From the NCBI GenBank assembly GCA_038040195.1, contig JBBPIR010000001.1, positions 417,341 to 481,340 on the forward strand: DNA of 64,000 nt. The letters run 5' to 3'. Made by a program: the position numbers and the translations under genes. Shown here piece after piece: positions 6,772 to 44,691 of this stretch (positions are counted from its first letter, which is position 1; each line of letters begins with the position of its first letter). Source of the DNA: Chloroflexota bacterium. GTDB lineage: Bacteria > Chloroflexota > Limnocylindria > QHBO01. A model generated the notes under the pieces. That model was not told the origin of the DNA and searched no databases. It worked only from the letters and a program-made list of their open reading frames with translations.

Positions 6772-8741
<1,970 letters not shown>

Positions 8742-8742
<1 letters not shown>

Positions 8743-15691: not shown

Positions 15692-16890
15692 CCGGCGCTG
15701 GACGTGACGAGGTCGCCGGTCCGCTCCAGGCGCCCCAGGGAGTCGCCGATGCGGTCCACGGCTTCGAGGATGTTGTCCCGGCTATTGGCGTAGCTGAAGC
15801 GGAGAAATCCCTCCCCATGACGGCCGAAGGCCGTCCCCGCCAGCCCGCAGACGCCCGCGTCATACAACAGGTGGGTCGCGATATCGGTGCTCGAGCGACC
15901 GAACGAGCCGAGGTTGGGAAAGACGTAGAACGCGCCGTGCGGCATGACGCAGCTGACGCCGGGGACGGCGTTCAGTCCGTCAACCATCAGGGTCCGCCGG
16001 GCGATGAATTCTTCGCGCATGGCGTCGGCGGCGTCCTGGGGTCCGGTCAGGGCCGCGATCGCCCCGGCCTGGGCGAAGGCGTTGGTGCAGCTGACCGAGT
16101 TGATCACCAGCCGGCTGAAGGTCGGCGCCAGCCAGGCGGGCACGATCCCGTATCCGAGCCGCCAGCCGGTCATGGCGAACGTCTTGGAGAACCCGTCCAG
16201 GGTGATCGTTCGCTCCGCCATGCCGGGCAGGGTGGCGATCGACAGCGGCTCGCCCTCGTACTGGAGCCGGCCGTAGATCTCATCGGCCAGGACCACCAGG
16301 TCGTGCCGATTGGCGATGTCGGCCACCGCCCGCACGTCATCGGAGGTCATCACCGAGCCGGTCGGGTTGTGCGGGCTGTTGATAACCAATAGACGGGTCC
16401 GCGGGGTGACCAGGCTGGCCACCTCCTCGACGTCCATCCGGAACTCGCGTTCCTCGCGCAGGGGCGCCGCCACCGCCACTCCGCCCACGTACTCGGCCAT
16501 GCTCTCGTAAATCGGGAAGCCGGGGTTGGGGTAGATGACCTCGTCGCCTTCGTCGACCACGGCCAGCATGGCGTAGAACATGATCGGCTTGGCGCCGGGG
16601 GTCACGATCACCTGGTCGGGCGTGGCCTCGATCCCCTTCCAGCGCCTGACGTCGTCCGCAATCGCCTCCCGGAGCGGGGCGATGCCCTCGGCTGCGGTGT
16701 AATGGGTCATCCCCTCGTCCAGCAGGCCGCGCACAGCCGCGGCCTTGATGTGGCGCGGGGTATCGAAGTCCGGCTCACCGATCTCGAGATGAATCACGCT
16801 CCGCCCGGTTGCCTCCAGCGCTCGCGCGCGGGCGGCGGCCTCGAACGCGGTCTCGGTCCCGATGCGGGACATCCGCTCAGCCAGCTTCAC
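15688..16890 (-). CDS. Class I/II PLP-dependent aminotransferase (aspartate aminotransferase family)
   Basis: Fold-type I aminotransferase motifs (PGFPIYESMA, LLVINSPHNPTGSV, FSKTFAMTGWRLGY with PLP lysine); 4-nt overlap with tkt. Confidence 0.85.
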   Translation of the reverse strand: MKLAERMSRIGTETAFEAAARARALEATGRSVIHLEIGEPDFDTPRHIKAAAVRGLLDEGMTHYTAAEGIAPLREAIADDVRRWKGIEATPDQVIVTPGAKPIMFYAMLAVVDEGDEVIYPNPGFPIYESMAEYVGGVAVAAPLREEREFRMDVEEVASLVTPRTRLLVINSPHNPTGSVMTSDDVRAVADIANRHDLVVLADEIYGRLQYEGEPLSIATLPGMAERTITLDGFSKTFAMTGWRLGYGIVPAWLAPTFSRLVINSVSCTNAFAQAGAIAALTGPQDAADAMREEFIARRTLMVDGLNAVPGVSCVMPHGAFYVFPNLGSFGRSSTDIATHLLYDAGVCGLAGTAFGRHGEGFLRFSYANSRDNILEAVDRIGDSLGRLERTGDLVTSSAG

Positions 16891-17005
16891 GCACCCAAGT
16901 GTACCGATGGGCCGGCCCGACCGAATGGGCCATTGCGGGGCGGCTGGCGCCGCTTGCTATACTTTGCGAAGCGATTCCAATCTGCGCCGGGAGAACCCAT
17001 CACCC

Positions 17006-17410
17006 ATGACGCTCTCCGAGACGACCCCTCAGGTCACCTCCACCACCGAACTGCTCGTCAGCCTTACCGATGCGGCTGCCGCCAAGGTCACCGAGCTCAG
17101 GGCCCGCGAGGGCAAAGCGGAGGCCGCGCTGCGCCTGTTCGTGAAGAGCGGCGGCTGTTCAGGGTTCAGCTATGGGCTGGCCTTTGACGACTCCCGGGCC
17201 GATGACGACCGGGTGGAGCTCCACGGCGGAGTCCCGATCGTGATCGATGCCTACAGCGCCCAGTACGTGGACGGCGCCGAGATCGACTACGTCGACTCGC
17301 TGATGGGATCCGGCTTCGCCATCAACAACCCGAACGCGGTGAGCAGCTGCTCCTGCGGCTCGTCGTTCAACACCGATGGCTCGCCGGCCAAGGCCGGGGG
17401 CTGCCACTAG
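17006..17410 (+). CDS. Iron-sulfur cluster insertion protein (IscA/ErpA/HesB family)
   Basis: HesB motifs (LRLFVKSGGCSGFSYGLAF ... CSCGSSF) with three conserved Cys; ATG at 17006. Confidence 0.8.
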   Translation: MTLSETTPQVTSTTELLVSLTDAAAAKVTELRAREGKAEAALRLFVKSGGCSGFSYGLAFDDSRADDDRVELHGGVPIVIDAYSAQYVDGAEIDYVDSLMGSGFAINNPNAVSSCSCGSSFNTDGSPAKAGGCH

Positions 17411-17466: not shown

Positions 17467-18321
17467 CTATCCGCTGACCAGCGCCCAGATCTGTCGGGCG
17501 CCCGTGACGCCCTTCAGCTCATGCAGCCCGCGGCCTTCGAACCGCAGCTCGGAATCCGCCACCAGCTCGTAGGTCGTGCCCGATACGAGCACCTCCCCGG
17601 CAGCCGCCAAGGCGGTCACCCGGCTAAGCACATGTACCGCCACGCCCCGGACGTTGTCGGGGATCAGCTCGATCTCCCCGGTGTGCACACCGATGCGCAG
17701 ACCAAAGCCGAGGTCTGCCGCAGCGTCGCGGATCGCGGCAGCACACCGGATGGCCCGTTCGGCACCGTCGAACATGGCGATGATCCCATCCCCCGTCGTC
17801 GTGGCCAGCTTGCCCCGGAACTTGTCGATCTGGCGCCGGCTCTCGGCGTTCAGGCTGGCCAGCATGGTGGCCCAGGACGCGGGGCCCACCCGCTCGGCGG
17901 TCGCGGTGGAGTCCACGATGTCGGTGCACACCAGCGTGGCCAGGGTGCGCTCGCTCCGAGCGGCTGCCGGCAGGGCGAAGGTGCGCATGCCCGCGAAGTC
18001 GTACTGGATCACCGGCTCGTCGCCCACCACCCAGGCGTCGTGGCCGGGCAGGACCTCATACAGCATCCCTGGCCCGACCTCCATCTCCAACCCGTCGGGA
18101 GTGATGTAGTGGAGCTTCCCTTCCATCACCAGGCCCAGGTGGTGGTACTCGCACCATTCGGTCTGGGCAATCGGCTTGACGTCCTTCGACCACTGCCAGC
18201 CGGGTTCTAACGTCATTAGGCCGACCACGAAGTCGCCCAGGTTCCAGATATCGGTCCGCCCGTTGGGGAGCATCCGCGTCTCGTCGGGCAGGTCGAGGGA
18301 TTTGCGTTGCATGTGGGCCAC
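17467..18321 (-). CDS. Cupin-domain / class III adenylate-guanylate cyclase fusion protein
   Basis: N-terminal cupin_2 beta-barrel (EYHHLGLVMEGKLHY); C-terminal class III cyclase domain (LVCTDIVDSTA ... TTGDGIIAMFDGA ... GVHTGE). Confidence 0.75.
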   Translation of the reverse strand: MAHMQRKSLDLPDETRMLPNGRTDIWNLGDFVVGLMTLEPGWQWSKDVKPIAQTEWCEYHHLGLVMEGKLHYITPDGLEMEVGPGMLYEVLPGHDAWVVGDEPVIQYDFAGMRTFALPAAARSERTLATLVCTDIVDSTATAERVGPASWATMLASLNAESRRQIDKFRGKLATTTGDGIIAMFDGAERAIRCAAAIRDAAADLGFGLRIGVHTGEIELIPDNVRGVAVHVLSRVTALAAAGEVLVSGTTYELVADSELRFEGRGLHELKGVTGARQIWALVSG

Positions 18322-18339
18322 CCGGGTTCTCCTTTCGGG

Positions 18340-19809
18340 TTACTCGCCGGAGCCGTCGTCTTCGAATGCGCTGGCGCCGGCCTCGATCGACCGGCGGGGA
18401 CGGCCCCCCAATGCGACCGGGATCGGCCTGGGCAATCCCGGTGGACGGACATGCCGGTCCACCAGCTGGCGGGTGCCATCGACGCCGAGGCGCTCGAACA
18501 GGAGGCCCAGCCGGGCGCGGAGGTTCTCCCCGATCGTGGCCTCGGCCTCCGGTCCGATCGACCACAGCGCGGCCTTGAAGGGGCCCAGCGCCTTTTTGCG
18601 GGTCTTGTACAAGAACTGCTCATCGGTCTCGCCGGGGCGGCGTTCATCGGCGCAGTTGGCGAGGCACCAGGCCATCATCTCGGCCTTCAGGTCAGCGGGC
18701 AGCCCGCCTCCGTCGTACAGGATGTTCTGGAAGCCGGTGGCGAGGTGGATCTCGGCGCACCCCGCGGCCGGGAAATGCCCGAACGCTTCCTCGGGAAGGG
18801 TGCTGGCGCCGTGCTGGACGCAGCCGGCCAGCCCGAACTCCTCGCGAGCCACGGTCGAGAGGCGTCCCAGCGTGTCGAAGTCGAGCGCCACCGGGGCGAT
18901 GCTGCCGTCCGGAAGCGCCATCCCACCGTGCGAGGTCCCGGTCTGGATGCTCACCTTCGAGATACCCGTGTGCCGATCCGCCTCGTCACCCAGGGCGGCG
19001 CGGTACTCGGCCAGGTAGGCGCGCAGCTCGGCCTCGTTCGAGTTCACCTTCCCCACCTCGCCGATCTCACCGCCGATGGAGATCGTCACCCCGGGCGGCT
19101 GGATTGAGCGCACCAGGCGAGTGAGGTCGGCCGTGCGCTCGGCGTTCACGCGCTGCTGCTCGGGGATGGTGGCAAGGTCGAGGTCGACCAGCGTGCTGGC
19201 GTCGATGTCGACATTCAGGAACCCCGCGCCCACCGCCTCGCGGGTGAGGTCGCGGAGGCCGGTCAGCTCGATGTCGGGGTCCACCCGCCAGCGGGTGGCG
19301 TTGAACTGGAAGTGGTCGCCCTGCAGGAAGATCGGGCCTACCCACCCCTCGCGCAGGCCGGCGGCCAGGATGACCGCGGTGTACTCGTCGGGGCGCTGGT
19401 CGCTATACGCCATCTCGCTCTTGGCGATCTCGAACACGAGCGCCCCCACCTCGCGTAGGCGAGCGACCGCGAACACAGAGCGGGCCGTCAGGTATGCGGC
19501 GGCTCGGACGTTGATGGCGGGGACGGTGAAGGCCGTGGGCGCGATCTCGCCGCGACCACGCGCGGCGTATAGCTCCTGGATGGAGGCCGATCCACAGCCA
19601 AGCGCCTGGCTGGCGGCCCAGATCACCCAGCGCTGGGCGTCGCGGAAGGCCGGGTCGGCGTGGAAGACCGCGTGGCGGACCAGCCGGTCGGTGAGCGGAC
19701 CCCGAAACGCAGCCGGATCGGTGACCACCAGTCCGTCGGATCCGATGATCGCGGCCGGCGCCAGTTCCGCCCGCAGCTCATCGAGGGAGGCCGCGGTCAT
19801 GGCCTGCAT
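18340..19809 (-). CDS. Class II (metal-dependent) ketose-bisphosphate aldolase family protein, atypically long (489 aa)
   Basis: Class II aldolase-like motifs (LQGDHFQ and IQTGTSHGGMA, resembling GTSHGAYK of FbaA); exact specificity unknown. Confidence 0.55.
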   Translation of the reverse strand: MQAMTAASLDELRAELAPAAIIGSDGLVVTDPAAFRGPLTDRLVRHAVFHADPAFRDAQRWVIWAASQALGCGSASIQELYAARGRGEIAPTAFTVPAINVRAAAYLTARSVFAVARLREVGALVFEIAKSEMAYSDQRPDEYTAVILAAGLREGWVGPIFLQGDHFQFNATRWRVDPDIELTGLRDLTREAVGAGFLNVDIDASTLVDLDLATIPEQQRVNAERTADLTRLVRSIQPPGVTISIGGEIGEVGKVNSNEAELRAYLAEYRAALGDEADRHTGISKVSIQTGTSHGGMALPDGSIAPVALDFDTLGRLSTVAREEFGLAGCVQHGASTLPEEAFGHFPAAGCAEIHLATGFQNILYDGGGLPADLKAEMMAWCLANCADERRPGETDEQFLYKTRKKALGPFKAALWSIGPEAEATIGENLRARLGLLFERLGVDGTRQLVDRHVRPPGLPRPIPVALGGRPRRSIEAGASAFEDDGSGE

Positions 19810-19810
19810 G

Positions 19811-20113
19811 CTAGCCCAGCCATCCCAGGCCGGCCAGGATGTTGAAGGCCAGCAGGGCCGCGATGGGCACGCCGATGACCGCCACCAGGACGTACCAGTC
19901 GCGGCCGCCGGTGGGGTCCGGATTGGGGCGCCGCGCCAGCCGACTGGACCACGCCACCACCGCGCTCAGCAGTGCCACGTACAGGACGGCGGCCAGGGGC
20001 GCCACGGCCAGCGCCACGCGCTGGATCCCGCCACAGTCGAGGGCCAACAGGCCCCCGGGCGGACAGGGCGTCGCGGCTTCGCGTAGGACGAGGAGCCCCA
20101 CCCCGGCCAGCAC
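19811..20113 (-). CDS. Small hypothetical membrane protein (100 aa)
   Basis: Three predicted hydrophobic helices; last in the respiratory gene string; no recognisable domain. Confidence 0.35.
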   Translation of the reverse strand: MLAGVGLLVLREAATPCPPGGLLALDCGGIQRVALAVAPLAAVLYVALLSAVVAWSSRLARRPNPDPTGGRDWYVLVAVIGVPIAALLAFNILAGLGWLG

Positions 20114-20171
20114 CGCGGCTGACCAGCCGACGTGGACGACGAGCAGCCGATTCAGGCGCGATGGGCCGGTG

Positions 20172-20759
20172 TCAGCCGGCCGCGCGAACGGAAGCCTCGG
20201 CCGCGGCCTTCGCCTCGCGGCGGCTGATGCGCCGGAACTCGTAGTACAGGTAGGCGAGGCCGGTTGCGCCTCCGCCGGCGGTGATCGCGCCCAGGCCGAG
20301 CGCGATGAGGGGGAACTGAGGCCCGGTGGTGGTGATGAAGGCGCCGCCGGCGACGTTGAACACCAGGTACGGGATCAAGAGCAGTACCACCGCCACGTAG
20401 TTGGCGAGCACGAACAGTCGCACCAAGGTCCAGCCCGGGCCGTGCCGTCCGCGGGACGCCTGCGTCATGGCGGCCAGGATGACGACCAGCACGACGTTGG
20501 TCCAAGCCACACCGTTGGCGACGATGTAACCCACGTTCGCCGAGAACTGGAGGAATGGGATGAACTGGGTGACGGCGTAGAAGACCGAGTTCGGGACGTA
20601 GGTGAACAGCCAGTACACGAACAGGAACATCGGCACACCCTTCATGGTGGCGATGAGCCATGTCTCGGACCCGAACAGGAGCCAGTTCGTGAAGTCATCG
20701 GCCTCGCCCAGCAGGCGAGCAAACAGGCCGCGACGCCTGGGCAGCGCGTAAGTCGTCAT
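20172..20759 (-). CDS. Hypothetical polytopic membrane protein (195 aa) co-operonic with the cytochrome bc genes
   Basis: Five or six TM helices; ATGA-type 4-nt overlap with the upstream dihaem cytochrome c gene. Confidence 0.5.
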   Translation of the reverse strand: MTTYALPRRRGLFARLLGEADDFTNWLLFGSETWLIATMKGVPMFLFVYWLFTYVPNSVFYAVTQFIPFLQFSANVGYIVANGVAWTNVVLVVILAAMTQASRGRHGPGWTLVRLFVLANYVAVVLLLIPYLVFNVAGGAFITTTGPQFPLIALGLGAITAGGGATGLAYLYYEFRRISRREAKAAAEASVRAAG

Positions 20760-21820
20760 TGGGTCTGGTCCAGCAGGAACGTGATCAGGGCCTGCAGCTG
20801 GTCTGCAGTGAGGTCACTCTCCGGGAACGGCGGCATCCCGGTATCAGCGTCGTCGTTGTAATTGGCCGCCGAATCGCGGATCCATTTCTCCAGGAACGTC
20901 CGCATGTCGGCGTCGTAGTCGGCCTGCATCTGACCAAGGCCGGACACCGGGACTGGGAGGTCGGTCACCAGCTGGCTGCCGATGGTCTGGAGGTTTGGCC
21001 CGATTCCTCCCTCGAGATTGCGCCCGTGGCAGCCGAAGCACCCGGCATCCTCGAACACCTGCGCGCCGGCCTCGGCCGTATCCGGGACCTCCTCAGGCGG
21101 GTTGGCGAGCGTCTCCTCCGCCCATTCGCCGATCATCGCCGTCAGGGCTTCGATCTGCTGGCGAGTCAGCGACCCGCCGTACTCTTGGCCCCAGGCCGGC
21201 ATGAGGCTGTTGATGTCCCCCGATCGCACGATCCCGCCCAGGGTGATGACCCACTGCACATAGTTGTTCAGGCCCTGCCGGCCGCCGGTCTGAAGCCATT
21301 TGTTGGCCAGGCTCAGGGAGTGCAGGTTCGGCCCGATCCCACCCGTGCCGTCGACACCATGGCAGCGCGCGCAGTTGGCGCCATATGGCGTGAGATGCGG
21401 GGGGCCCGCGGTGACGAGCAGGGTGCTTTCCACGCCCTGGGCGGCGACGGTGGTCTCCCCATCCTCGTCGAACTTGACCGGCGATGTCCTGGTGTCCTCG
21501 ATGACAACCTCGAACGGCCGCGTCCCCGTCCCGCTCACGGTGAGCTCGGCGCCGGTCAGGTTCTTGAAGCTGATGGTTGTGTTCACGAATACCGAGATTT
21601 CCGTGAGGGCAACCTCAGCCTGGGAGAACCCGGCATCGATGACATCCACTTCGATGGTGTACGTGTCGTCGGGTAGGAAGACCAGCAGCCCGAAGTCCGG
21701 CAGCTCCTCGGTGTCGACGACCTCGAACTCCCCGCGCCGCGGGGCGTCGGTTATCCAGTAGAAGGTGGTGAATGCCGCGAAACCGACCATCAGCGCCACG
21801 CCGAGCGCCTTCATCCGCAT
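20756..21820 (-). CDS. Membrane-anchored dihaem c-type cytochrome (bc-complex cytochrome c subunit, QcrC-like)
   Basis: N-terminal TM; two CxxCH haem-binding motifs (CARCH, CFGCH), each followed by Met-containing loops. Confidence 0.8.
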   Translation of the reverse strand: MRMKALGVALMVGFAAFTTFYWITDAPRRGEFEVVDTEELPDFGLLVFLPDDTYTIEVDVIDAGFSQAEVALTEISVFVNTTISFKNLTGAELTVSGTGTRPFEVVIEDTRTSPVKFDEDGETTVAAQGVESTLLVTAGPPHLTPYGANCARCHGVDGTGGIGPNLHSLSLANKWLQTGGRQGLNNYVQWVITLGGIVRSGDINSLMPAWGQEYGGSLTRQQIEALTAMIGEWAEETLANPPEEVPDTAEAGAQVFEDAGCFGCHGRNLEGGIGPNLQTIGSQLVTDLPVPVSGLGQMQADYDADMRTFLEKWIRDSAANYNDDADTGMPPFPESDLTADQLQALITFLLDQTQ

Positions 21821-21830
21821 CGGCGCACAC

Positions 21831-22451
21831 CTACCCGGCGCAATGCGGGATGTCCTCGTTCCTGCGGTTGTCGAACGTCTCGGTGCCGATGGGCGGACCG
21901 TCGATCCTCACCGAGGTGTCCACGATGTACACGCCCTCCTCGATTCGGTGGGCGAACCGGTCCATGCCGCGGGGCGCGGGTCCCGCGCGCTTCTCGCCCA
22001 GGACCGTGTACTTCGATCCGTGGCACAGGCACTCGAACCACATGCTGCGGTCGCACAGCTGGGGGACGTTGCAGCCCAGGTGCGGGCACTTGCGGTACAG
22101 GGCCACGATCTCGTCTCCAGGGTCGTCGAACTCCTCCCCGGTGCCGTCGACGCGGGCCTTTGCAGCGGGGACGTTGACGACGAACAGCCGAGCCTTGTTG
22201 TAGATGAAAGGCAGGCCGCGCACCCACTCCGGCTGCTGCCCCGCGATGTCCGCCGCCGTTCCCAGGGCGAGGTTCGGGTCTCCGAGGCCACCCTTGATGT
22301 TGGGCCACAGGAACAGGATTGTGCCGCCCAGGAACTGGAGGGTAAGCAGGCCGACGCCGACCCCTACCGCCCGGCGCAAGAACCCTCGGCGGCTGATCTC
22401 GCGGACCGGCGGACCGGGCTGCTCCCCCCAGCCCGACGGTTGGGTGGTCAC
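21831..22451 (-). CDS. Rieske [2Fe-2S] iron-sulfur protein of the cytochrome bc/b6f complex
   Basis: Tat-like signal (RRGFLRRAVGVGVGL); Rieske boxes CPHLGC and CLCHGS. Confidence 0.85.
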   Translation of the reverse strand: MTTQPSGWGEQPGPPVREISRRGFLRRAVGVGVGLLTLQFLGGTILFLWPNIKGGLGDPNLALGTAADIAGQQPEWVRGLPFIYNKARLFVVNVPAAKARVDGTGEEFDDPGDEIVALYRKCPHLGCNVPQLCDRSMWFECLCHGSKYTVLGEKRAGPAPRGMDRFAHRIEEGVYIVDTSVRIDGPPIGTETFDNRRNEDIPHCAG

Positions 22452-22461
22452 GGCGCGGGCC

Positions 22462-23082
22462 TCATAGGGTGAAGAAGATCCCCTCCCACGGCCAGACCCA
22501 GTTCCAGCCCGGGCCGCGGAAGAACGAGCCGATGAGCGTGACCCCGATGCCGAAGAACATGATGCACAGGAAGAAGATCCAGGCCACCTTGCGATCCCGA
22601 GCCGCCCGATACGGCGAGCGGTCCACGTAGGCGATCAGAGCCAGACCGATGAAATAGACGGGCGGGATGAACAGCCCGGAAATCGTGACGTTGAAATAGG
22701 ACAGGAGCTCCTGGAGGCCGAGGAAGTACCACGGCGCCTTGGCCACGTGGGGCGTGACGTTCACGTTGGCCTGCTCTTCCAGCGGGGCCATGACAAAGAA
22801 CGACATGACCAGCAGCAGGGCGGTGATGAGGCACGCCATCAGGAACTCGGCCCGCAGCAGGTGGGGCCAGGTCAGAACCGTCTCGTCAGGGCGCTTGTCG
22901 ACCCGGACCATCGACTCCTGGCGGACGTAGGCCAGCAGCCGGAAACGCTCAGTGCCCGGGGCACCGGGCGGCCCCGGGAGTTTGGGACCGGTCCCCGGAA
23001 CCGCGGGCGGGGTCGTCGGCACCGGCGCCTGGGTGGGCGCGTTCTTATCGGCCGTCGCGTTGGGACGCTTCTCGATGGTCAT
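22462..23082 (-). CDS. Cytochrome b6f subunit IV-like (C-terminal half of a split cytochrome b)
   Basis: Three TM helices with a PEWY-like motif (APWYF); Pro/Ala-rich N-terminal extension; directly follows the b6-like gene. Confidence 0.8.
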   Translation of the reverse strand: MTIEKRPNATADKNAPTQAPVPTTPPAVPGTGPKLPGPPGAPGTERFRLLAYVRQESMVRVDKRPDETVLTWPHLLRAEFLMACLITALLLVMSFFVMAPLEEQANVNVTPHVAKAPWYFLGLQELLSYFNVTISGLFIPPVYFIGLALIAYVDRSPYRAARDRKVAWIFFLCIMFFGIGVTLIGSFFRGPGWNWVWPWEGIFFTL

Positions 23083-23096
23083 CGGTCAATCCAGCC

Positions 23097-23840
23097 TCAT
23101 ACCGGTCCGCTGATGCCGCCGTCTTTCCGAATCCGCCAGAAGTGGATCATCAGGAAGATGGCGGTGATGAGCGGGAACGCGATGACGTGATAGACGTAGA
23201 ACCGGATCAGGGTTTCCGAACCGATGTCGATCCCGGCGAAGATGATGAAGGCAGACTCGGTCGGGACCGCCGGAGCGTAGGCCGCCATCGAGCTGCCGAC
23301 ATTCACGGCCCAGAAGGCAATCTGGTCCCACGGCAGGAGGTACCCGGTGAAGCTGAGCCACAGCGTGCAGAACAGGAGGAACGTCCCGACCGCCCAGTTC
23401 CATTCGCGGGGCGGCTTGTAGGCCCCGTGGTAGAAGACCCGCATCATGTGCAGGAACACGGTGAGCACCATCAGGTGCGCACCCCAGCGGTGCATGTTCC
23501 GCACCAGGGAGCCGAAGGCCACGCTGTTCTCGATGGCGATGATGTCCTGGTAGGCGCGGTCGACGGAGGGTATGTAGAAGAACATCAGGTACAGACCGGT
23601 CACAGTCAGGACCAGGAACAGGAAGAAGCTGACCCCGCCGAGGCAGAACGTGTACGTGTAGCGCACGGCGTGGCGCTTGACCCGCACCGGGTGCAGGTGC
23701 AGGAACACGTTGTTCATGACCGCCAGGGCGCGCGTCCGGCTGGTGGTGGGGTACGGCTGACGGATCAGGGAGCGCCAGAAGTTGGACTCCTTGATCAGCC
23801 GGATGGGCAGCCAGTCCTGACCGGGCGGCTTGCGGGTCAC
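23097..23840 (-). CDS. Cytochrome b6-like (N-terminal half of a split cytochrome b; haem b ligands)
   Basis: Four TM helices with conserved His pairs (RxxH...H in helices B and D: MHRWGAHLMVLTVFLHMMRVFYHGAY ... YVYHVIAFP). Confidence 0.85.
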   Translation of the reverse strand: MTRKPPGQDWLPIRLIKESNFWRSLIRQPYPTTSRTRALAVMNNVFLHLHPVRVKRHAVRYTYTFCLGGVSFFLFLVLTVTGLYLMFFYIPSVDRAYQDIIAIENSVAFGSLVRNMHRWGAHLMVLTVFLHMMRVFYHGAYKPPREWNWAVGTFLLFCTLWLSFTGYLLPWDQIAFWAVNVGSSMAAYAPAVPTESAFIIFAGIDIGSETLIRFYVYHVIAFPLITAIFLMIHFWRIRKDGGISGPV

Positions 23841-25855
23841 CGTTCGACCACCATTCCCGCCTGCTGGCCAACCTGCCCCAGCACGTTGTCCTTGTAGCTC
23901 TCTAGCAACACTTTGCCATCAGGGGTGAACCGCTCGAGCTCGAGGCGGTCCATCGTGATGCAGTTGGTCGGGCACCGCTCCACACACAGGTTGCATCGGA
24001 TGCAGCGCTCCTCGTCGATGACCATTGCGATGCCCCGCGGCCACGACTGGAAGAGGTCGACCTCGGGGTCGTCACCGCCCACCGTCGCCTTGTCGACCAT
24101 GTAGATGACGCCTTCGGGACAGACGTCGGCGCAGAGCCCACACAGGATACAGCGGGGTCCATCGATGCTGATGTTGTGGTTGCACTGGAGGCAGCGGGCC
24201 CCTTCGGCGACCGCGCCCCGCGTGTCGTAGCCGATCTCGACCAGCCCGCTAAAGTCGCGGCGCATCTCGGGCGGGGCCATGGGGATGTGCTGGCGCGGGA
24301 TGGCCTCATAGAAGCGCGGCATGTCGTGGTCCAGGGCCTGGGTGATCGTGGCCCGGTTGATGATGGGCAGCTCGGCCAGCTCCGCGTCCCGGACGCCTGA
24401 CAGCCAGCGGTCGACGGCACGGGCGCAGGTGCGACCCAGGCCGGCGGCCTCGATGATGGTGGCTGGTCCGGTCACGTAGTCCCCCACCGCGAAGACCCCG
24501 TCCACGTTGGAGGCGAACGTGTTGCGGTCGGTCACGATCTTGCCGCGCATCAGCTCGAATGAGAGCGCGTTGAGCTTACGACCGTCGGGCCCGACCGGGG
24601 TGGTGCCGTTGAGCGGCTCGCGGCCCCACGACGAAATCGAGCCGCCTTTCACCACCTCGCGGGTATCGGTCACCCCGATGTGGCGGTTAAGGGGAGAGCC
24701 GTACTCGCCCAGGACGTTGTTGTCGGGTGACTGGCTCGTGCACGGGATGACCATGTCGCACGGGATCACGAACTCGCTGCCGGGGATCGGCTCCGCGGTG
24801 CGGCGGCCCGAGGCGTCCGGCTCGCCCAGGCGGGTGCGCTGGAAGACCGCGCCCTTCACCCGGCCCTGCTCATCGGCCAGGATCTCCACCGGGGCTCCGA
24901 AGTACTCGAAGCGGACCCCCTCGAAGCGCGTCTCGTGCTGCTCTTCCTCGTCGACGACCATCTCCTCGGGACCGCGGCGGTAGACCACCGTGCTGGTCTT
25001 GGCCCCGATCCGAAGGGCGGTCCGCGACGAGTCCATGGCCGTGTAGCCGCCACCGATGACCACGACGTGCTGGCCGACCCATTGCTCCTGGCCCAGGTTG
25101 GCGCGCTTCAGGAAGTCGACGCCGTAGATGACCCCGTCCAGCTCCTCGCCAGGGACGTTCATGGCGACCGGGTACATGCAGCCGGTGGCCACCACCACCG
25201 CGTCGTGCCGGGCGCGCAGCTCGTCCATGGTGACGTCCCGGCCGACCTCCACGTTGTAGTGGAACTCGGCGCCGTGCTTGGCCACCCAGTTGACGTCCAG
25301 CTCGATGACGTCGCGCGGCAGACGGAAGGCCGGCACGCCGATCAGGCAGGTGCCGCCGCCGGACGGCAACGCGTCGTAGATATCGACCTTGTGCCCCCAA
25401 CCGGCGAGCTCCTTGGCCGCGCTGAGCCCGGCCGGTCCGGCCCCGATGACCGCAACGCTCTTGCCGGTCGACGGCGCGACCTGGATGTCGTCGGGCATGT
25501 TGTTGGCGTAATGCCAGTCGACGAGGAACCGCTTCATCGCCCGGATGGCGAGTGGCTTGTCGATGTCGCCACGCCGGCAGGCCTTCTCGCATGGCGCCGA
25601 GCACACGTAGCCGCATATGGCGGCCACCGGGTTCGGGTCGCGGGCCAGGATGTAGCCCTCTTCGAACCGGCCCTCAGCGGCCAACATCAGGTAGCCGCGG
25701 CAGTTCGTGTTGACCGGGCAGCCTTCCTGGCACTCGATGTTGCACTGGAGCCAGTCGACGCCGACTTCGGCGGTCTGGAAGCGCAGGGGCACCGCGTCCT
25801 GAGAGGTCACGGGCGTTCGGAGCTCATCCAGCGTCCCCTTTGGCTCCCCCTGCAC
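23837..25855 (-). CDS. GltD-like NAD(P)H-dependent FAD flavoprotein with N-terminal [4Fe-4S] region and C-terminal 2x[4Fe-4S] ferredoxin domain
   Basis: Cys clusters (CNIECQEGCP...CGYVCSAPCEKAC); two Rossmann GxGxxG motifs (VIGAGPAGLSAA, VVVIGGGYTAMD); FAD motif VFAVGD; ferredoxin motifs (CLQCNHNISIDGPRCILCGLCADVCP and CIRCNLCVERCP); stop overlaps the b6 start. Confidence 0.8.
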   Translation of the reverse strand: MQGEPKGTLDELRTPVTSQDAVPLRFQTAEVGVDWLQCNIECQEGCPVNTNCRGYLMLAAEGRFEEGYILARDPNPVAAICGYVCSAPCEKACRRGDIDKPLAIRAMKRFLVDWHYANNMPDDIQVAPSTGKSVAVIGAGPAGLSAAKELAGWGHKVDIYDALPSGGGTCLIGVPAFRLPRDVIELDVNWVAKHGAEFHYNVEVGRDVTMDELRARHDAVVVATGCMYPVAMNVPGEELDGVIYGVDFLKRANLGQEQWVGQHVVVIGGGYTAMDSSRTALRIGAKTSTVVYRRGPEEMVVDEEEQHETRFEGVRFEYFGAPVEILADEQGRVKGAVFQRTRLGEPDASGRRTAEPIPGSEFVIPCDMVIPCTSQSPDNNVLGEYGSPLNRHIGVTDTREVVKGGSISSWGREPLNGTTPVGPDGRKLNALSFELMRGKIVTDRNTFASNVDGVFAVGDYVTGPATIIEAAGLGRTCARAVDRWLSGVRDAELAELPIINRATITQALDHDMPRFYEAIPRQHIPMAPPEMRRDFSGLVEIGYDTRGAVAEGARCLQCNHNISIDGPRCILCGLCADVCPEGVIYMVDKATVGGDDPEVDLFQSWPRGIAMVIDEERCIRCNLCVERCPTNCITMDRLELERFTPDGKVLLESYKDNVLGQVGQQAGMVVER

Positions 25856-25963
25856 TGAGCGGCGGAATCCGGCGTCGGACCGGTCCCCGGAAGCGGAAAC
25901 CGGCGATTCGATGCTACCCGTCGCCCACTCGTGGTGTCAAAGACGGGACACCGTGCTGAGGGT

Positions 25964-28066
25964 CTAGGGGAAGAAATGGGCGGCCATGACGCGGCGGACG
26001 AGAGGGGCGGCGTCCGAGCCCCCGGTTCCCAGGTGCACGCGGGCCAGGAGCGTGGCCACCACGATCTCCGGGTCGTCGGACGGGGCGAAGGCCGGAAACA
26101 GGGCATGGGGATCGGGACCGCCGGTTTCCGCCGTCCCGCTCTTGCCGGCGACGGGGATGCCAAACCCGGCAAAGGCCGCCGTCCCGGTGCCGTAGGAGTA
26201 GGTCGTCACGGCCTCCAGCGCCGTTACCAGGTATTCCAACTGGTCGGGGGTCATGGCGATCCGGCGTCGAACCTCGGGCCGGGTCACGAGCAGCGACTCC
26301 CCGTTGGGACCGGTCGCGTGCGCCACGAGACGCGGCATCCACAACGTCCCCCGGTTCGCGAACGCGGCGTAGGCCAGCGCCATTTGAAGCTGCGTACCGA
26401 GGAAGGATCCCTGGCCGATAGCCATCTGGACCTGATCGAAGGGTCCGAACGGTATGTACCCCCCGGAGGAGCGTGGATGTTCCTCGAACCACAGGGCATC
26501 GGGCAGTACGCCGGCTGTTTCGGAGACCCAGCCGATGCCGGTGGGTTGCCCGAACCCGAAGTCGGCGATGAGATCGGTCAGGGCGTCGACGTCGCGCTCG
26601 TAGACCAGCATGGACAACGGCATGTAGGTCGTGTTGCAGCTGAAGGCCATGGCCTCCACCAGCGAGACCGTGCCGGGCAGCAGGTGATAGAGGTAGTTTT
26701 GGAAGGTGAAGCCCTGCAGGTCCCAGGTCGGCTGACACGGCATCCGGGTTGCCGGCGTGGCCACCCCGATCTGGAGCGCCGCCGCCAGGGTGAACGGCTT
26801 GAACGACGAGCCGGTGGGATATGCAGACTCGGTGGCGTGGTTGAGCAGCTGGCTGGCGCTGGGCGCGCCCAGCGGCACCCCGCCCAGGGTGGTGCCCAGG
26901 GTCATCGCGTTGGGGTTAAACGCGGGAGCCGAGACCAGGGCCCAGATGTCGCCGCTATGGGGATCGACCACCACGGTGGCAGCTTCGGGATAGGGGGCCA
27001 GTGCCGCCTCGGCGGTGCGTTGGAGTTCGGGTCGAAGAGTCAGGACCACGTCCGCGCCCGGGATTGCGGCCCGCTCCACGACCCGCTGGGCCGCTCCACC
27101 GTATGGCGCGGCCAGGACGCTGAATCCGGCACGCCCCCGCAGGATCGACTCCGCGCTGGCCTCCACCCCCAAACGGCCCGCCAACTGGCCGGCCGCGTAG
27201 CCGTCGGCTGGCGGCCATGCGGCCGCCTCGGCATCGGTGAGCGGGGTCACGTAGCCCACCGTCTGGCCGGCCAGCGTCTCCTGGGGGTACACGCGGATGC
27301 CATCCGCGCGGGTCTCGGCCAGGACCGTTCCGTCGGCGGCCAGGATCCGACCACGGGCGGGGAGGGGGCCGCGGTCCAAGCTGAACGTGCCGCCGGTCGC
27401 GCCCAGCTCGGGGAATAGGAATGCCGGCGTCCAGCGCACCTCCCAGCCACGAGCCCCCCGGGTGAGCTCGACCACCCGATCCAGGACGATGTCTCCGAAC
27501 ACGGTGGATTGGAAAGTGAGACGCACGGGAACCGCCTGGCCCGGAACGGGTCCGAGCACCACCGCCTGGGGATCGATGGCCGGAGCGGGCGAGCTGCCCG
27601 GAACGGGCGGCCGGGCGAACCGCGACCGCGCGACCGGCGGCGGAGGCACCGGCAGATCCGGTGGCCGAGCTTCAGGCGGTTGGGCCGCGGCGCGAGGTGA
27701 GCCAACAGCCAAGTGCATCTCGGTCAGGCCGATGACCTCCGCGAAGCGAGCATGGAGATCGGCGAACCCGACCCGCGTATAGCGTTCGCGATCGGCGGCC
27801 GCCATGACATCGTGCATGTGGTCGTAGTCCCGAATCCGCCACAGGGTGAGGAAAAGCTCCACTGCTGCGCGCGGCTGGACACCGGCGTCCAGTGCCATCC
27901 CGCCACCGGCGGTGGTGACGGGAGGCAGGGCGGCGCCCAGGAGAACCGCCAGCACCAGGCCGGCGGTCGCCGCGCGCGGAGGCGCCGACCTCAAGAAGCT
28001 GCGGCGGGACGGCCCGCGAGCGGGATCACGATGTCCCGGGCCGGGTCCAGGTGGCGGCTGCCCCAC
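25964..28066 (-). CDS. Penicillin-binding protein (class B transpeptidase, FtsI/PBP2-like) with NTF2-like N-terminal domain
   Basis: Transpeptidase motifs SxxK (GSSFKP), SxN (FSCNT), KTG-type (AGKSGTA); start uncertain because the ORF overlaps the upstream gene by 76 nt (possible internal start near 27898). Confidence 0.8.
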   Translation of the reverse strand: MGQPPPGPGPGHRDPARGPSRRSFLRSAPPRAATAGLVLAVLLGAALPPVTTAGGGMALDAGVQPRAAVELFLTLWRIRDYDHMHDVMAAADRERYTRVGFADLHARFAEVIGLTEMHLAVGSPRAAAQPPEARPPDLPVPPPPVARSRFARPPVPGSSPAPAIDPQAVVLGPVPGQAVPVRLTFQSTVFGDIVLDRVVELTRGARGWEVRWTPAFLFPELGATGGTFSLDRGPLPARGRILAADGTVLAETRADGIRVYPQETLAGQTVGYVTPLTDAEAAAWPPADGYAAGQLAGRLGVEASAESILRGRAGFSVLAAPYGGAAQRVVERAAIPGADVVLTLRPELQRTAEAALAPYPEAATVVVDPHSGDIWALVSAPAFNPNAMTLGTTLGGVPLGAPSASQLLNHATESAYPTGSSFKPFTLAAALQIGVATPATRMPCQPTWDLQGFTFQNYLYHLLPGTVSLVEAMAFSCNTTYMPLSMLVYERDVDALTDLIADFGFGQPTGIGWVSETAGVLPDALWFEEHPRSSGGYIPFGPFDQVQMAIGQGSFLGTQLQMALAYAAFANRGTLWMPRLVAHATGPNGESLLVTRPEVRRRIAMTPDQLEYLVTALEAVTTYSYGTGTAAFAGFGIPVAGKSGTAETGGPDPHALFPAFAPSDDPEIVVATLLARVHLGTGGSDAAPLVRRVMAAHFFP

Positions 28067-30468
28067 TCCCCGATCCGCGGATCGTGGGTGAACAGGATGA
28101 CCTGTCGCTCCCCGCTGAGCTCGTGGAGGACCCCGAGGAGCGCCTCACGTCGGGTGTCGTCTGCCTGGGCGGTCACCTCGTCCAGGATGAGGGGCGCCGT
28201 CTCGCCCGTCGTGACCAGGTGCTGGGCCATGGCCACCCGGAGCAGCAGGTAGATCTGCTCCCGGGTCCCCTCCGACAGGCGCCACGCATCGCGCCATTGG
28301 CGGGTCGCCGCTTCTCTGACCCGGACGCGCAGGTCGCGAGGATCGACGCTGACGTCGAGGTAGGCGCCGCCGGTGATGCGGGGCAGCCAGCGTCGAACCG
28401 TGTCGGCCAGCACCGGCGCGAGGTCGCGATGGACCTGTTCCTCGGCGTTGCGCAGCAGGGCCAGCGTTCGGTCCAGGACCTCCGCCATGGTCACGACTCG
28501 TTGGAGCTCGACGCCGGCGGCCTCGACCGCCTCCTCGGCCTCCGCCACGCTCGGCAGACTGGCGTCCAGCTGGCGCGCCTCGCCCTCGAGTGTCGCCGCC
28601 GCCCGTTCGGCGGTGAGCAGCTCGGCTTGGCCGGCGGCGAGCGCTTTCTCGGCCGCAGCCGTGGCGAGGCCGGCGTCGGCACCGACGGGCACCGCGACCG
28701 ATGTGGACAGACCGGCCGCCGCCATTCGTCGCGCGGCATCGGCGGCCTCCGACTCCAGCTGCCCGATGCTGCGGCCGTCAAGCAGGTCGCTGAGCTCCTG
28801 CCACTCCGCGATTGCCTGCTGGCCGGTCTGCAGATCGGCGAGGCGACGGCGCTGCCACGCCTCGAGGTCGCTCACGACGCGTTCGGGGTCATTCCCGTTG
28901 AGTGGTTGTCCAATGCGCTGGGCGGCCGCTCGGACCTCGGACTCGGCGCGGGCAATGGCGGCGGCCGCCTCAGCCGCCGTGCCCTCCAGCTGGCGACGGG
29001 ATTCGAGCTGCCGGCGCAGAGGCTCGGCCTGGGCGGCGGTGGCCGCCTCCTCCGCTCGCTGTGCGCAGGCGGCCAAGTAGGCGGCAACGGCCGCGCGCAG
29101 GTCGCCCTCACCGGGCGCGCCACGGGCAGTCAGCGCCTCGCGGACCGACCGCCCAGACCGCCCAACGCGGGCCGCGACGTCCTCCTGCCGACGCCCCCAA
29201 TCCGCAGCTGCGCCGGCCCCGCCCGTCCGCTGGCGGATCGTGATCCAGGCCGTGAATCCGAGCCCGAGGGCAATCAGGATGAGCCCAACCAGCGGTGCAC
29301 CCAGCAATACGGCGCTCAAACCGGCCGCCGCGGCCAGTAGGCCGCCGCCCACAAGCAGCCGCTCGCCCGAGGCGCCCGGCGCAGGGTGCCCACCGGGTTG
29401 CCGGAGCTCAGCAGCGGCGCCCTCGGCCTGGTCAAGCGCGCTCACCGCGTCCATGACCGACACATGGGGCGCTATGTCGCCCTGGGGCGCGGGCGGCAGC
29501 GCGGCCAGCCGCCGCGAGATGGCTTCGGCGTCCGGCCCGTCCAGGACGGCCGTCGCCGGTCGACCCCGCCACGCCTCCAGCGCGGTGGCCACACGGGCCG
29601 TTTCGTGTTCCACGGCGGCGAGTGTTGCCGGCGGACCGCTGTTGCGGGCGGCCAGCTCCGCGGCGCGGCGAGCGCGGGCCACGAGCGCAATGGCCCTGGA
29701 CTGCTCCACGGCGGCCTCGGCCTGGGCCAGCCGATCCCGAGCGGAAACGACCCGCCAGGCTGCGACCTGTGCATCGGCCGCCCGAGCCAGGTCACGCTGG
29801 TGTCGAGCCCGGGCATCGGCTACAACGCGCTCGGCATCCGCGGCTGCATGGCGCGCTTGGCGCAGGGGCCCGACCGCGACGCGGGTGTCGGCGCCTACGG
29901 CGGACTTCCGGAAATCGGTCAATCGGCCAATGGCTTCTGCCGCAGTGGAGTCCCGTCCGGCGGTGGCTGCGGCCCGCTGCATGTCGTCCTGGAGCCCATC
30001 GGCGGCATCCACGACGGCGAGGATGCGCGCCTGGTCGACCGATACGGTGGCGGCGAAGGCCTGCCGGTCAAGGCCCAGCCACCGCGATGCGTCCGGGCTG
30101 CCCTCGACGATGATCTCGGCCGACACGTCCCGCCCCAGACCGACATCCACCGCCCGGCAGTCAACCCGGCCAGCCAGGTCCTGGCTGATGTCGATCACGC
30201 GGCCGTCATCCAGATGCAGGCGGGCCTCGACCTCCCATGGGCCATCCGCCTCGTCCCACGGACGGTGCCGCTCCTCGAGCTCGAGGTCCTCCTTCGTCCG
30301 GCCCCCGCGCCCGCGCCGCCGACCGGTCAACGCCAGGCGCAGCGCGGCGTGCCAGGAGGACTTGCCCGCCTCGTTTGGGCCGACCACCACGGCCAGACCG
30401 GGGCGCAGTTCGAGGATGGCGTCGCGGAAGGGCCCGAATGCGCGCGCGGACACTCGCTCAACCCACAT
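27991..30468 (-). CDS. SbcC/Rad50-like SMC-family ATPase with central transmembrane hairpin (SbcE/YhaN-like)
   Basis: Walker A GPNEAGKSS; long Ala/Glu/Arg-rich coiled-coil; two adjacent hydrophobic helices mid-protein (LLVGGGLLAAAAGLSAVLLGAPLVGLILIALGLGFTAWITI); C-terminal signature-like LSEGTREQ, Walker B LILDEV and H-loop FTHD. Confidence 0.75.
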   Translation of the reverse strand: MWVERVSARAFGPFRDAILELRPGLAVVVGPNEAGKSSWHAALRLALTGRRRGRGGRTKEDLELEERHRPWDEADGPWEVEARLHLDDGRVIDISQDLAGRVDCRAVDVGLGRDVSAEIIVEGSPDASRWLGLDRQAFAATVSVDQARILAVVDAADGLQDDMQRAAATAGRDSTAAEAIGRLTDFRKSAVGADTRVAVGPLRQARHAAADAERVVADARARHQRDLARAADAQVAAWRVVSARDRLAQAEAAVEQSRAIALVARARRAAELAARNSGPPATLAAVEHETARVATALEAWRGRPATAVLDGPDAEAISRRLAALPPAPQGDIAPHVSVMDAVSALDQAEGAAAELRQPGGHPAPGASGERLLVGGGLLAAAAGLSAVLLGAPLVGLILIALGLGFTAWITIRQRTGGAGAAADWGRRQEDVAARVGRSGRSVREALTARGAPGEGDLRAAVAAYLAACAQRAEEAATAAQAEPLRRQLESRRQLEGTAAEAAAAIARAESEVRAAAQRIGQPLNGNDPERVVSDLEAWQRRRLADLQTGQQAIAEWQELSDLLDGRSIGQLESEAADAARRMAAAGLSTSVAVPVGADAGLATAAAEKALAAGQAELLTAERAAATLEGEARQLDASLPSVAEAEEAVEAAGVELQRVVTMAEVLDRTLALLRNAEEQVHRDLAPVLADTVRRWLPRITGGAYLDVSVDPRDLRVRVREAATRQWRDAWRLSEGTREQIYLLLRVAMAQHLVTTGETAPLILDEVTAQADDTRREALLGVLHELSGERQVILFTHDPRIGEWGSRHLDPARDIVIPLAGRPAAAS

Positions 30469-30471
30469 CGG

Positions 30472-31566
30472 TCACAGCACCTCGAGGTCGCGGCGCCCAT
30501 CGAGGGCGCGCAGTCCGGTGACGATCACGCGCCGCCGCTGGTCGAGATCTTTCACCTCTGCCGTTGCCAGCCGCACGAACTGGCCTCGGACGGTGGCCTC
30601 CCCGCCGATGGCGTCGAGGTCGTATCCCACGCGTGCCGACCCGGGGCGAATGACCAGCCCCTCGAGGTGGGCACCGAGCGTCGTCAGGCCGGCCAGGTCG
30701 ACCTCTACGCTGGGGGCCATCTCCCCGCTCAGCGTCACCCGCACGCAGCCGCCGAGGGGGGCAAGCGCCGCCTCGACCCGAGTCCGCACGTCGTCGCCGT
30801 GGGCCGCATCGTCGAGCGACACCTCGACGTCATGGACGACCGAGGTCGCCACCAATCGGCGTTCGCGCACCACCGAGCCGTCTGCGCCGACGGATGCCAG
30901 GACCGCACCCCGCTCCCCGGTCTCTCCGAAGTCGAGCGGATCGGGGTTGCCCGGGTACGTGTACCGATCCGCGTCGCGCGGGACATGGAAGTGGCCCAGG
31001 AATGCGTGGGCCAACCCGGACGCCTCCAGCTCACCCGCATCGAAGGGCGCGTGGGGCAGCTTGCCGCTCCCCTGCTGGGCCAGGAACCCGCGCTCGGATG
31101 CGTGCGCCAGGGCCAGGTGGATCCCACCCCGGTCGGGCCGGAAGGTCGCGAAGAACCCATCCGTGTTGGCCGGTGCCCGGTGCGCCGCACCCCACAAGGT
31201 GAGCCCATCGGCGAGGCCGGCCGGGGTCAATCGGTCCTCCGTGAACAGGTTGACGTTCGGCGACCAGTCCGTCACCGCGTACGGGCTGGCCTCGGACAGC
31301 CAGTCGTGGTTGCCGGGGGCGAGGTAGATGGGGATATTTGTCCCGCCGAAGCTGGCTCGCAGAAACTCGACCGTGTCAGGTGAGATCCGGTCGTGCTCGA
31401 ACAGGTCCCCTCCGCTGAGGATGGCGTCGACCCGCTCCGCCTCAGCCAGCTCCAGGATCCGGGTCAGGGTCGCGCGCCGGTTCTGGCGCCGCAGGGCGGC
31501 GGTGGCGGGACGAGCCCACGCGAACGGCGCGTCGAGATGGAGGTCCGCGAACAGGAGCAGCTTCAT
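30472..31566 (-). CDS. SbcD/Mre11-like calcineurin-type metallophosphoesterase (SbcF/YhaO-like nuclease)
   Basis: Phosphoesterase motifs (LFADLHLD, GGDLFEH, GNHD, GHFH); ATG at 31566; 4-nt spacing to the downstream ATPase gene. Confidence 0.8.
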   Translation of the reverse strand: MKLLLFADLHLDAPFAWARPATAALRRQNRRATLTRILELAEAERVDAILSGGDLFEHDRISPDTVEFLRASFGGTNIPIYLAPGNHDWLSEASPYAVTDWSPNVNLFTEDRLTPAGLADGLTLWGAAHRAPANTDGFFATFRPDRGGIHLALAHASERGFLAQQGSGKLPHAPFDAGELEASGLAHAFLGHFHVPRDADRYTYPGNPDPLDFGETGERGAVLASVGADGSVVRERRLVATSVVHDVEVSLDDAAHGDDVRTRVEAALAPLGGCVRVTLSGEMAPSVEVDLAGLTTLGAHLEGLVIRPGSARVGYDLDAIGGEATVRGQFVRLATAEVKDLDQRRRVIVTGLRALDGRRDLEVL

Positions 31567-31618
31567 GGTCAGCCGCGCTCGATCGTGGCCGACCGCGGTG
31601 ACAGGTCGTGTGTCGTGA

Positions 31619-44549: not shown

Positions 44550-44691
44550 AGGGTGGGTTAGGTTACACCCCTCCGCCAACTGCTCAGCAGAGGGCAGCCG
44601 GTGCGCCAGTACTACTGGGGTGCCCGTTCAGCGGCATTGCCGATTCAGGCGTCCCATCCGAGACTCCCCGCGTGACATATCGGCCGACGAC

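Follow-up and report, generated by a model that had tools for sequence, protein, structure and literature searches.

A stretch of 64,000 nucleotides from a Chloroflexota bacterium of the Limnocylindria (GCA_038040195.1, contig JBBPIR010000001.1, positions 417,341 to 481,340; hereafter the window, G+C ~70%) harbors a compact string of minus-strand genes (19811-25855) in which an iron-sulfur (FeS) flavoprotein precedes the subunits of a b6-type cytochrome complex. We tentatively read this operon, from its sequence, as encoding a menaquinol-oxidising Rieske/b6-type complex equipped with a cytoplasmic NADP(H) flavoprotein, in which quinol bifurcation would drive NADP+ reduction. To judge from its gene content and motifs, the locus is a further example of a published kind, represented by Kuste4569-74 and Kustd1480-85 of the anammox planctomycete Kuenenia and by the “subfamily G” cytochromes b. 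The non-canonical route of electron entry or exit at the N side, put forward for this locus in the original prediction, is therefore a reasonable idea and not a new one, as it amounts to the hypothesis published for the anammox complexes (PMC12954380, PMC5600118).

The original prediction described a string of cytochrome b6, subunit IV, Rieske protein, dihaem cytochrome c and two membrane proteins, and all of them are recovered from the list of open reading frames (ORFs) and the Pfam and NCBIfam searches, as follows:

25964-28066, minus strand: PBP2-like transpeptidase, upstream neighbour of the flavoprotein gene
25911..25940, minus strand: promoter-like site TTGACA-18 nt-TAGCAT, within the 108 nt that separate the PBP2 stop (25964) from the flavoprotein start
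23837-25855, minus strand: FeS flavoprotein, 672 amino acids (aa) as the longest ORF
23097-23840, minus strand: cytochrome b6 (Pfam Cytochrome_B, 3.8e-41)
22462-23082, minus strand: subunit IV (Pfam Cytochrom_B_C)
21831-22451, minus strand: Rieske [2Fe-2S] protein (Rieske boxes, Pfam)
20756-21820, minus strand: dihaem cytochrome c (two CxxCH; Pfam Cytochrome_CBB3 twice)
20172-20759, minus strand: 195-aa membrane protein, family unassigned by Pfam and NCBIfam
19811-20113, minus strand: ~100-aa protein with two transmembrane (TM) helices, final small gene of the string

The stop codon of the flavoprotein and the start codon of b6 overlap by 4 nt (cgGTGAccc), in accordance with the translational coupling that had been proposed. 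The same overlap recurs in a 93%-identical relative (L085), in which independent gene calls gave a 657-aa flavoprotein and a 247-aa b6, and it is likewise seen in eight Chloroflexota loci. Downstream, the b6-IV, IV-Rieske and Rieske-cytochrome c gaps are of 14, 10 and 10 nt, with GAGG close upstream of two of the starts, and the cytochrome c stop and the start of the 195-aa gene share ATGA. A scan for terminators within the operon returned chance-level matches only. The promoter-like site agrees with the consensus at 10 of 12 positions and is the sole sigma-70-like match in 18000-28200, a region in which 0.9 are expected by chance; its position alone speaks for a role, and is suggestive. To note, a gene for a 489-aa class-II aldolase-like protein (18340-19809, minus strand) follows the gene of the ~100-aa membrane protein with a single base in between and holds the same position in the 93%-identical relative, so that co-transcription with the bc operon is possible.

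Conservation of this arrangement was followed by scanning one genome per species with a 12-sequence flavoprotein alignment, which yielded 80 loci; four more were obtained by exact-protein look-up, and all 84 loci were then searched with the proteins of the window. In 24 of the 84, belonging to three phyla, the flavoprotein gene directly adjoins those for b6, subunit IV and the Rieske protein, and this association is far beyond chance. The linked loci display the following gene orders:

Chloroflexota (50-97% identity), 12 loci (L001, L005-L014, L039): flavoprotein-b6-IV-Rieske-c
Anammox Scalindua (L015): Rieske-flavoprotein-b6-IV
Anammox Brocadia (L055): Rieske-b6-flavoprotein-...-IV
Acidobacteriota, 10 loci (L017, L018, L020, L022, L024, L027, L030, L037, L043, L050): flavoprotein-Rieske-b6-IV

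Each of the 11 near-complete Chloroflexota relatives in the 50-97% identity range retains the module (97% identity in the case of L005 and L006). The synteny with qcr/pet genes that had been called for is thus found in Chloroflexota, anammox bacteria and Acidobacteriota, and an association unique to one genome is refuted, since the module is conserved across three phyla despite its shuffled order. Two motifs, AKAPWYFLGLQE and FFRGPGWxWVWPW, are strictly conserved in the membrane subunits. Because adjacency survives four gene orders in three phyla and the membrane-subunit motifs are invariant, these comparisons provide strong evidence that flavoprotein, b6, subunit IV and Rieske protein form one functional unit.

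Not all family members are linked in this way. A paralogue of 48% identity (P0123) stands alone, and neither the Capsulimonas members of the clade (L019, L026) nor many more distant GltD-like proteins are bc-linked. Another membrane anchor was sought beside unlinked clade members (the Capsulimonas L019, Betaproteobacteria L047 and P0123 loci), and nothing recognisable was found there. A profile search with the cytochrome b returned, among its best 120 matches, only Chloroflexota and Acidobacteria-like proteins, with no flavoprotein-less controls. In one Chloroflexota metagenome-assembled genome (MAG; L014:7819-9156), b6 and subunit IV occur as a single 445-aa ORF in which the b6 sequence becomes abruptly divergent at its C-terminus and then runs into subunit IV; an assembly frameshift seems more likely than a true fusion.

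The FeS flavoprotein

The domain reading of the flavoprotein that was proposed originally is upheld by Pfam and NCBIfam: Pfam assigns residues 36-119 to Fer4_20 (8.3e-17), residues 133-393 to Pyr_redox_2/Pyr_redox, and two Fer4 motifs to residues 562-637. The length of 672 aa needs correction. Translation probably begins at the GTG of codon 16 (~25810), resulting in a protein of 657 aa, because the close homologues are all 656-659 aa long and the 93%-identical relative is called at 657 aa. By these matches, the protein is classified as a GltD/NfnL-type NADP(H)-binding FeS protein. It exhibits neither a predicted TM helix nor a signal peptide and should therefore be cytoplasmic. Two segments flank its FAD/NADPH core:

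25499..25750, minus strand: N-terminal two-cluster FeS region, residues 36-119 (Fer4_20), including Lys108
23936..24196, minus strand: C-terminal ferredoxin-like domain, residues 554-640, with an RCxxC pair followed by two CxxCxxCxxxCP motifs

Four groups of FeS-cluster cysteines are recognisable by sequence, with a lysine in place of the fourth Cys at the FAD-proximal cluster. In the N-terminal region, C42, C46, C85, C89, C93 and K108 are invariant across the family alignments (invariant or nearly so for K108), and Lys108, within the motif MKRF, occupies the non-Cys ligand position of the FAD-proximal cluster. The GxGxxAxD and YRR motifs of the FAD/NADPH core are also invariant in the family. 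The C-terminal pair of CxxCxxCxxxCP motifs is found in 22 of 25 bc-linked homologues as compared to 11 of 58 unlinked ones, and is thus enriched in the former without being exclusive to them. The AlphaFold2 (AF2) model calculated from a 58-sequence alignment has a mean predicted local distance difference test score (pLDDT) of 85.5 and a predicted template modelling score (pTM) of 0.86, the C-terminal domain reaching pLDDT values of 80-95. An insertion of ~45 residues (EYGSPLNRHIGVTDTREVVKGGSISSWGREPLNGTTPVGPDGRK..., 24566-24700, residues ~385-430) is modelled with low confidence; it is limited to the window protein and its relatives above 80% identity, and is absent in all homologues below 60%.

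The closest solved relatives are the NfnL-like modules of NfnA (from the NfnABC complex) and StnC (from StnABC), followed by NfnL and GltD, and the pyridine nucleotide is NADPH in all of them. NfnA and StnC (PDB IDs 9n5u, 9bov and 8oh5) share ~30% identity with the flavoprotein and are retrieved by Foldseek with E-values of 1e-49 to 1e-50 over 663-711 aligned columns. They possess the same two-cluster N-terminal domain, the FAD and NADPH sites, the lysine at the proximal cluster, and more FeS clusters past the flavin module. However, they continue into a NuoG/formate-dehydrogenase-like domain and dock on the soluble BfuBC, whereas the window module ends in its 2x[4Fe-4S] domain and is encoded together with a membrane b6 complex.

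The proximal lysine is informative about the role of the flavin. In the bifurcating NfnSL, a glutamate ligates the FAD-proximal cluster, whereas NfnABC and StnABC have a conserved lysine at the same residue; the FAD of these two complexes is explicitly described as non-bifurcating, its electrons following the linear chain FAD-A7-A6-A3-A2-A1 (PMC12018979). Pairwise alignments place Lys108 opposite a Lys in 9n5u, 9bov and 8oh5, and opposite a Glu in 4ylf_B and 5jca_L. As Lys108 shares its column with the lysine of NfnA/StnC and not with the glutamate of NfnL, the flavoprotein is read as a plain NADP(H)-FAD site extended by a four-cluster wire, and not as a flavin bifurcation site.

Two more specific assignments were rejected. 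The protein is not the large subunit of a bifurcating NfnSL (NfnL/NfnB), given its Lys108 instead of Glu and an operon devoid of any NfnS-like gene. Nor is it GltD: its scores remain well below the cut-offs of the corresponding models (202.1 vs 447.7 for TIGR01317, 256.8 vs 482.95 for TIGR01318), and its gene lies between those of PBP2 and b6, not next to gltB.

Membrane and P-side subunits

The b6 subunit is of the four-helix split type. All four of its haem-b histidines align with those of the solved structures (PDB IDs 1q90 and 1vf5, over residues 63-247), and these ligands, H117, H131, H218 and H233, are invariant in our alignment A3. Cys66, within FCLGG, aligns with Cys35 of solved b6, the covalent attachment site of haem cn (CxGG). 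The protein also carries a 31-residue N-terminal extension, and every one of the 24 linked cytochromes b has His48 (in NVFLH). An extra haem b has been considered possible in the anammox complexes, with His43 of Kuste4571 or His62 of Kustd1481 as ligand (PMC12954380); the window His48 aligns with Scalindua His43, which has the same number as the ligand proposed in Kuste4571. His48 was rejected as a marker of the flavoprotein-linked cytochromes b: scored against the Geobacter-type ExtP model, the in-silico change H48A loses 4.9 bits, comparable to the 4.0 bits of C66A, while H50A loses 1.5 and H57A none. As the ExtP model also favours His48 while the ext cluster contains no flavoprotein, His48 is a trait of a wider ExtP-like group.

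Subunit IV has three predicted TM helices, the Qo-site motif AKAPWYFLGLQE and the C-terminal motif FFRGPGWNWVWPW. Its PxWY-type Qo motif is an A-P-W-Y variant (AKAPWYF), invariant in 24 of the 24 linked loci. In the acidobacterial loci, subunit IV has five TM helices, and a conserved ORF with one CxxCH lies upstream. The Rieske protein displays a twin-arginine signal (SRRGFLRR, TAT type), one TM helix and the boxes CPHLGC and CLCHGSKY. The latter box is of the “SY” type, which correlates with potentials of +300-350 mV (Baymann et al., PMC3509893). The 354-aa cytochrome c is composed of an N-terminal TM anchor, a ~110-aa domain without assigned family, and two class-I c domains (CARCH and CFGCH). 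The two small membrane proteins (20172-20759 and 19811-20113) gave no family match. They are kept only in the closest relatives (L005-L008), neither gene being found downstream of cytochrome c in more distant Chloroflexota, and may be lineage-specific accessory subunits.

Among known systems, the closest resemblance is to the Kuenenia complexes Kuste4569-4574 and Kustd1480-1485. These have the same split b6 with a haem-cn cysteine, subunit IV and high-potential Rieske protein, together with an in-operon GltD-like FAD subunit harboring four FeS clusters and a lysine at the proximal cluster. AlphaFold3 models of Kuste4570 and Kustd1483 place the four clusters from the FAD to the membrane, the proximal one with a buried lysine (PMC12954380). 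By sequence, the window Lys108 matches this buried lysine of both proteins. The gene order of the Scalindua locus matches that of Kuste4569-73, and the Brocadia locus matches Kustd1480-85. As compared to the window proteins, these two loci show 49-53% identity for cytochrome b, 42-43% for subunit IV and 35-38% for the flavoprotein, and the Qo motif AKAPWYFLGLQE is identical. In a rough neighbour-joining tree, window and anammox flavoproteins fall in the same part without being cleanly monophyletic.

The window complex differs in its host, a Chloroflexota bacterium instead of an anammox planctomycete, in its flavoprotein-first gene order, and in the TM helices of subunit IV (three, vs five in Kuenenia). 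The most marked difference concerns the P-side partner. Whereas Kuenenia employs a hexa- or octahaem or HAO-like protein, the window has the 354-aa dihaem class-I cytochrome c, and this sets its complex apart. The number of CxxCH motifs in this partner is 2 in the window, 1-2 in the other Chloroflexota, and 8 in Brocadia (in a 946-aa protein); in Acidobacteriota, an octahaem protein of ~700 aa and a monohaem protein are encoded downstream. With its 2 CxxCH, the window thus falls outside an anammox type defined by a multihaem (6-8 haem) partner. The multihaem partner is a lineage trait of the anammox examples, external to the core definition.

The association itself has been noticed before. In Dibrova et al. 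2017 (PMC5600118), short “subfamily G” cytochromes b are described to co-occur with large NAD(P)-binding FeS oxidoreductases, a gene proximity encountered “in many other cases” beyond planctomycetes; this is exactly the association seen in the window. No description of the Limnocylindria or Acidobacteriota version was found in the literature searched, a search that did not reach the key 2013 papers. Limnocylindria genomes are mostly later than the work of Dibrova et al.

The names found in databases point elsewhere. ExtP and ExtQ are the best NCBIfam models for the window b6 and subunit IV; they belong to Geobacter ExtOPQ (Rieske, cytochrome b and membrane protein of extHIJKLMNOPQS). Both equivalogs were rejected, as the scores stay under the cut-offs (284.3 vs 290 for ExtP, 55.9 vs 150 for ExtQ). 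The Geobacter ext cluster has no flavoprotein and encodes 4-12-haem cytochromes, a porin and a rhodanese (PMC5877670), whereas no multihaem, porin or rhodanese genes occur near the window operon. Three cytochromes b from Limnocylindria/Chloroflexota MAGs (P0297, P0308 and P0338) are named “selenite/tellurite reduction operon b-type cytochrome ExtP” at NCBI. Given that the window b6 falls under the cut-off and that its gene context is unlike the ext cluster, this name is probably over-specific and a likely mis-annotation.

Direction of electron flow

The predicted complex would unite subunit IV and the dihaem cytochrome c with a Rieske protein of high potential and a split cytochrome b carrying haems bp, bn and cn, the flavoprotein being physically associated with the cytoplasmic face of b6. 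The FAD would be joined to the N-side haems of b6 by a linear wire of two N-terminal and two C-terminal FeS clusters. Quinol would be oxidised at Qo, a first electron passing downhill via the Rieske protein and the dihaem cytochrome c to a terminal oxidase. This downhill step would push the second electron via haem bp, haems bn/cn and the FeS wire to the FAD and on to NADP+. With menaquinol at ~-75 mV and a Rieske potential of ~+300 mV, a potential of roughly -450 mV could be attained on the low-potential branch (following PMC12954380), which would be enough for NADP+. Such a complex would work as the quinol:cytochrome c / NADP+ oxidoreductase that Kartal envisaged in anammox, and could run an ordinary Q cycle as well. 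In that proposal, Qo bifurcation in the anammox complexes drives NAD(P)+ reduction (Kartal et al. 2013, as cited in PMC12954380). The potentials since determined for anammox Rieske proteins, +303 and +335 mV, are said to suit a scheme of NAD(P)H generation (Hauser et al. 2025, PMC12954380).

Two directions fit this anatomy. NADP+ reduction driven by Qo bifurcation is tentatively favoured, since the “SY” Rieske type and the anammox Rieske potentials agree with the NAD(P)H-generation scheme, and since feeding NADPH into Qn would bring no stoichiometric gain over NDH-2 plus bc according to our own bookkeeping. Donation of NADPH to Qn is possible and appears less probable. In this opposite sense, electrons would pass from NADPH to FAD, the four FeS clusters, haem cn/bn and finally quinone at Qn, making the complex a hard-wired NADPH:quinone (overall NADPH:cytochrome c) oxidoreductase. 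It would then correspond, in bacteria, to the FNR that binds chloroplast b6f, and to the Q cycle as Mitchell first formulated it, with an n-side donor. The transfer from NADPH (-320 mV) to menaquinone (~-75 mV) is downhill, with no particular energetic requirement. Stromal reductants have long been proposed to deliver electrons at haem cn, and spinach b6f is purified together with FNR (PMC7908018; PMC5600118); the window b6 retains the haem-cn cysteine. Quinone reduction was also proposed for the anammox complexes by de Almeida 2016 (as cited in PMC5600118), and the host, probably an aerobic heterotroph, must oxidise its reduced pyridine nucleotides. The chloroplast parallel is one of layout: both systems have a haem-cn b6-type complex, an N-side NADP(H) flavoenzyme and a discussed N-side electron entry (PMC7908018), but chloroplast FNR is unrelated in fold, lacks an FeS wire, is loosely bound and is encoded apart from the pet genes. 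Conversely, the yield of NADPH donation, 2 H+ released and 1 charge moved per electron, equals that of a separate NDH-2 and Q cycle, which leaves the strict linkage of Qo/Rieske and flavoprotein unexplained. The high-potential “SY” Rieske would be superfluous, and the acidobacterial members keep the flavoprotein despite loss of the haem-cn cysteine. Reversible operation of the complex is a possibility.

Far less weight is given to schemes in which the FAD itself bifurcates or confurcates, NADPH electrons being split between membrane haems/quinone (high potential) and a soluble ferredoxin or flavodoxin (low potential), as in NfnSL or EtfABCX, with each branch running through its own pair of clusters. 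The core fold is indeed that of NfnL, whose FAD bifurcates, the [4Fe-4S] clusters form two separate pairs, and EtfABCX is an existing membrane-associated NADH/menaquinone/ferredoxin bifurcating enzyme. However, the flavoprotein has Lys108 as in the non-bifurcating NfnA/StnC and not the Glu of NfnL (PMC12018979), the anammox homologues are modelled with a single line of four clusters from FAD to membrane (PMC12954380), and the operon contains no ferredoxin or flavodoxin gene. The confurcating partner offered as an option in the original prediction is accordingly disfavoured. It is even more improbable that the flavoprotein is a free-standing soluble NADPH oxidoreductase, just co-transcribed with an ordinary b6c complex. 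The members of the same clade without a neighbouring cytochrome b (P0123 and the two Capsulimonas loci) would be compatible with such an enzyme, as would a C-terminal ferredoxin domain that is not exclusive to bc-linked members. Yet the adjacency persists through four gene orders and three phyla, the flavoprotein is translationally coupled to b6, and Kuenenia complexes with both the cytochrome b and the oxidoreductase are reported as expressed (de Almeida 2016, as cited in PMC5600118).

Several points weigh against NADP+ reduction by Qo bifurcation, the direction preferred here. The direction of electron flow is not readable from sequence, and de Almeida 2016 suggested the opposite one (as cited in PMC5600118). 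An aerobic heterotroph has other sources of NADPH. The acidobacterial b6 has a Tyr or Phe where the haem-cn cysteine is expected, and the acidobacterial Rieske boxes are of the “SF” and not the “SY” type, so that a single mechanism may not fit all members. Finally, a first AF2 model, based on 12 sequences, gave a pLDDT <50 for the C-terminal ferredoxin domain, a weakness resolved with the 58-sequence alignment.

With NADP+ reduction as the working direction, the complex of aerobic Chloroflexota and Acidobacteriota could be a respiration-driven NADPH generator, the low-potential electron leaving the membrane via haem bn/cn and the four-cluster wire to NADP+, and the high-potential electron going via the dihaem cytochrome c to oxygen; extended in this way to both phyla, the proposal is more speculative. 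That NAD(P)+ could be the sink for the low-potential electron of a Rieske/cytochrome b complex has been an open proposal since 2011-2013; studies of it have so far been confined to anammox enrichments, which grow slowly and whose multihaem partners are very complex. The same module is now seen with a minimal dihaem cytochrome c in abundant, probably aerobic, Chloroflexota of soil or freshwater. Acidobacteriota carry it as well, and some of the carrier families have cultured members, which would offer simpler test systems. If true, this would be the first demonstrated bc-type complex with its low-potential branch ending on a soluble pyridine nucleotide, and the mechanism proposed for anammox would prove to be widespread among ordinary aerobes of soil and freshwater.

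Other genes in the window

Two genes elsewhere in the window would fit a complex rich in haem c and FeS clusters. A CcmF-type cytochrome c maturation gene (System I; 6772-8742, minus strand) is located 12 kb from the operon and is grouped with small neighbours and an ABC ATPase gene (10772-11653), and an IscA/ErpA-like Fe-S assembly protein is encoded 3 kb from the operon (16862-17410, plus strand). Directly upstream of the PBP2 gene lies an SbcC/SbcD-like pair of ATPase and phosphoesterase (27991-31683, minus strand). Further away, Ku (43635-44579, minus strand) and an ATP-dependent DNA ligase (46434-48158, minus strand) form a non-homologous end-joining pair. Signalling genes near the operon encode an adenylate/guanylate cyclase-domain protein (17467-18321, minus strand) and a 941-aa protein combining a MerR-type helix-turn-helix (HTH), three GAF domains and a GGDEF domain (38349-41174, plus strand).

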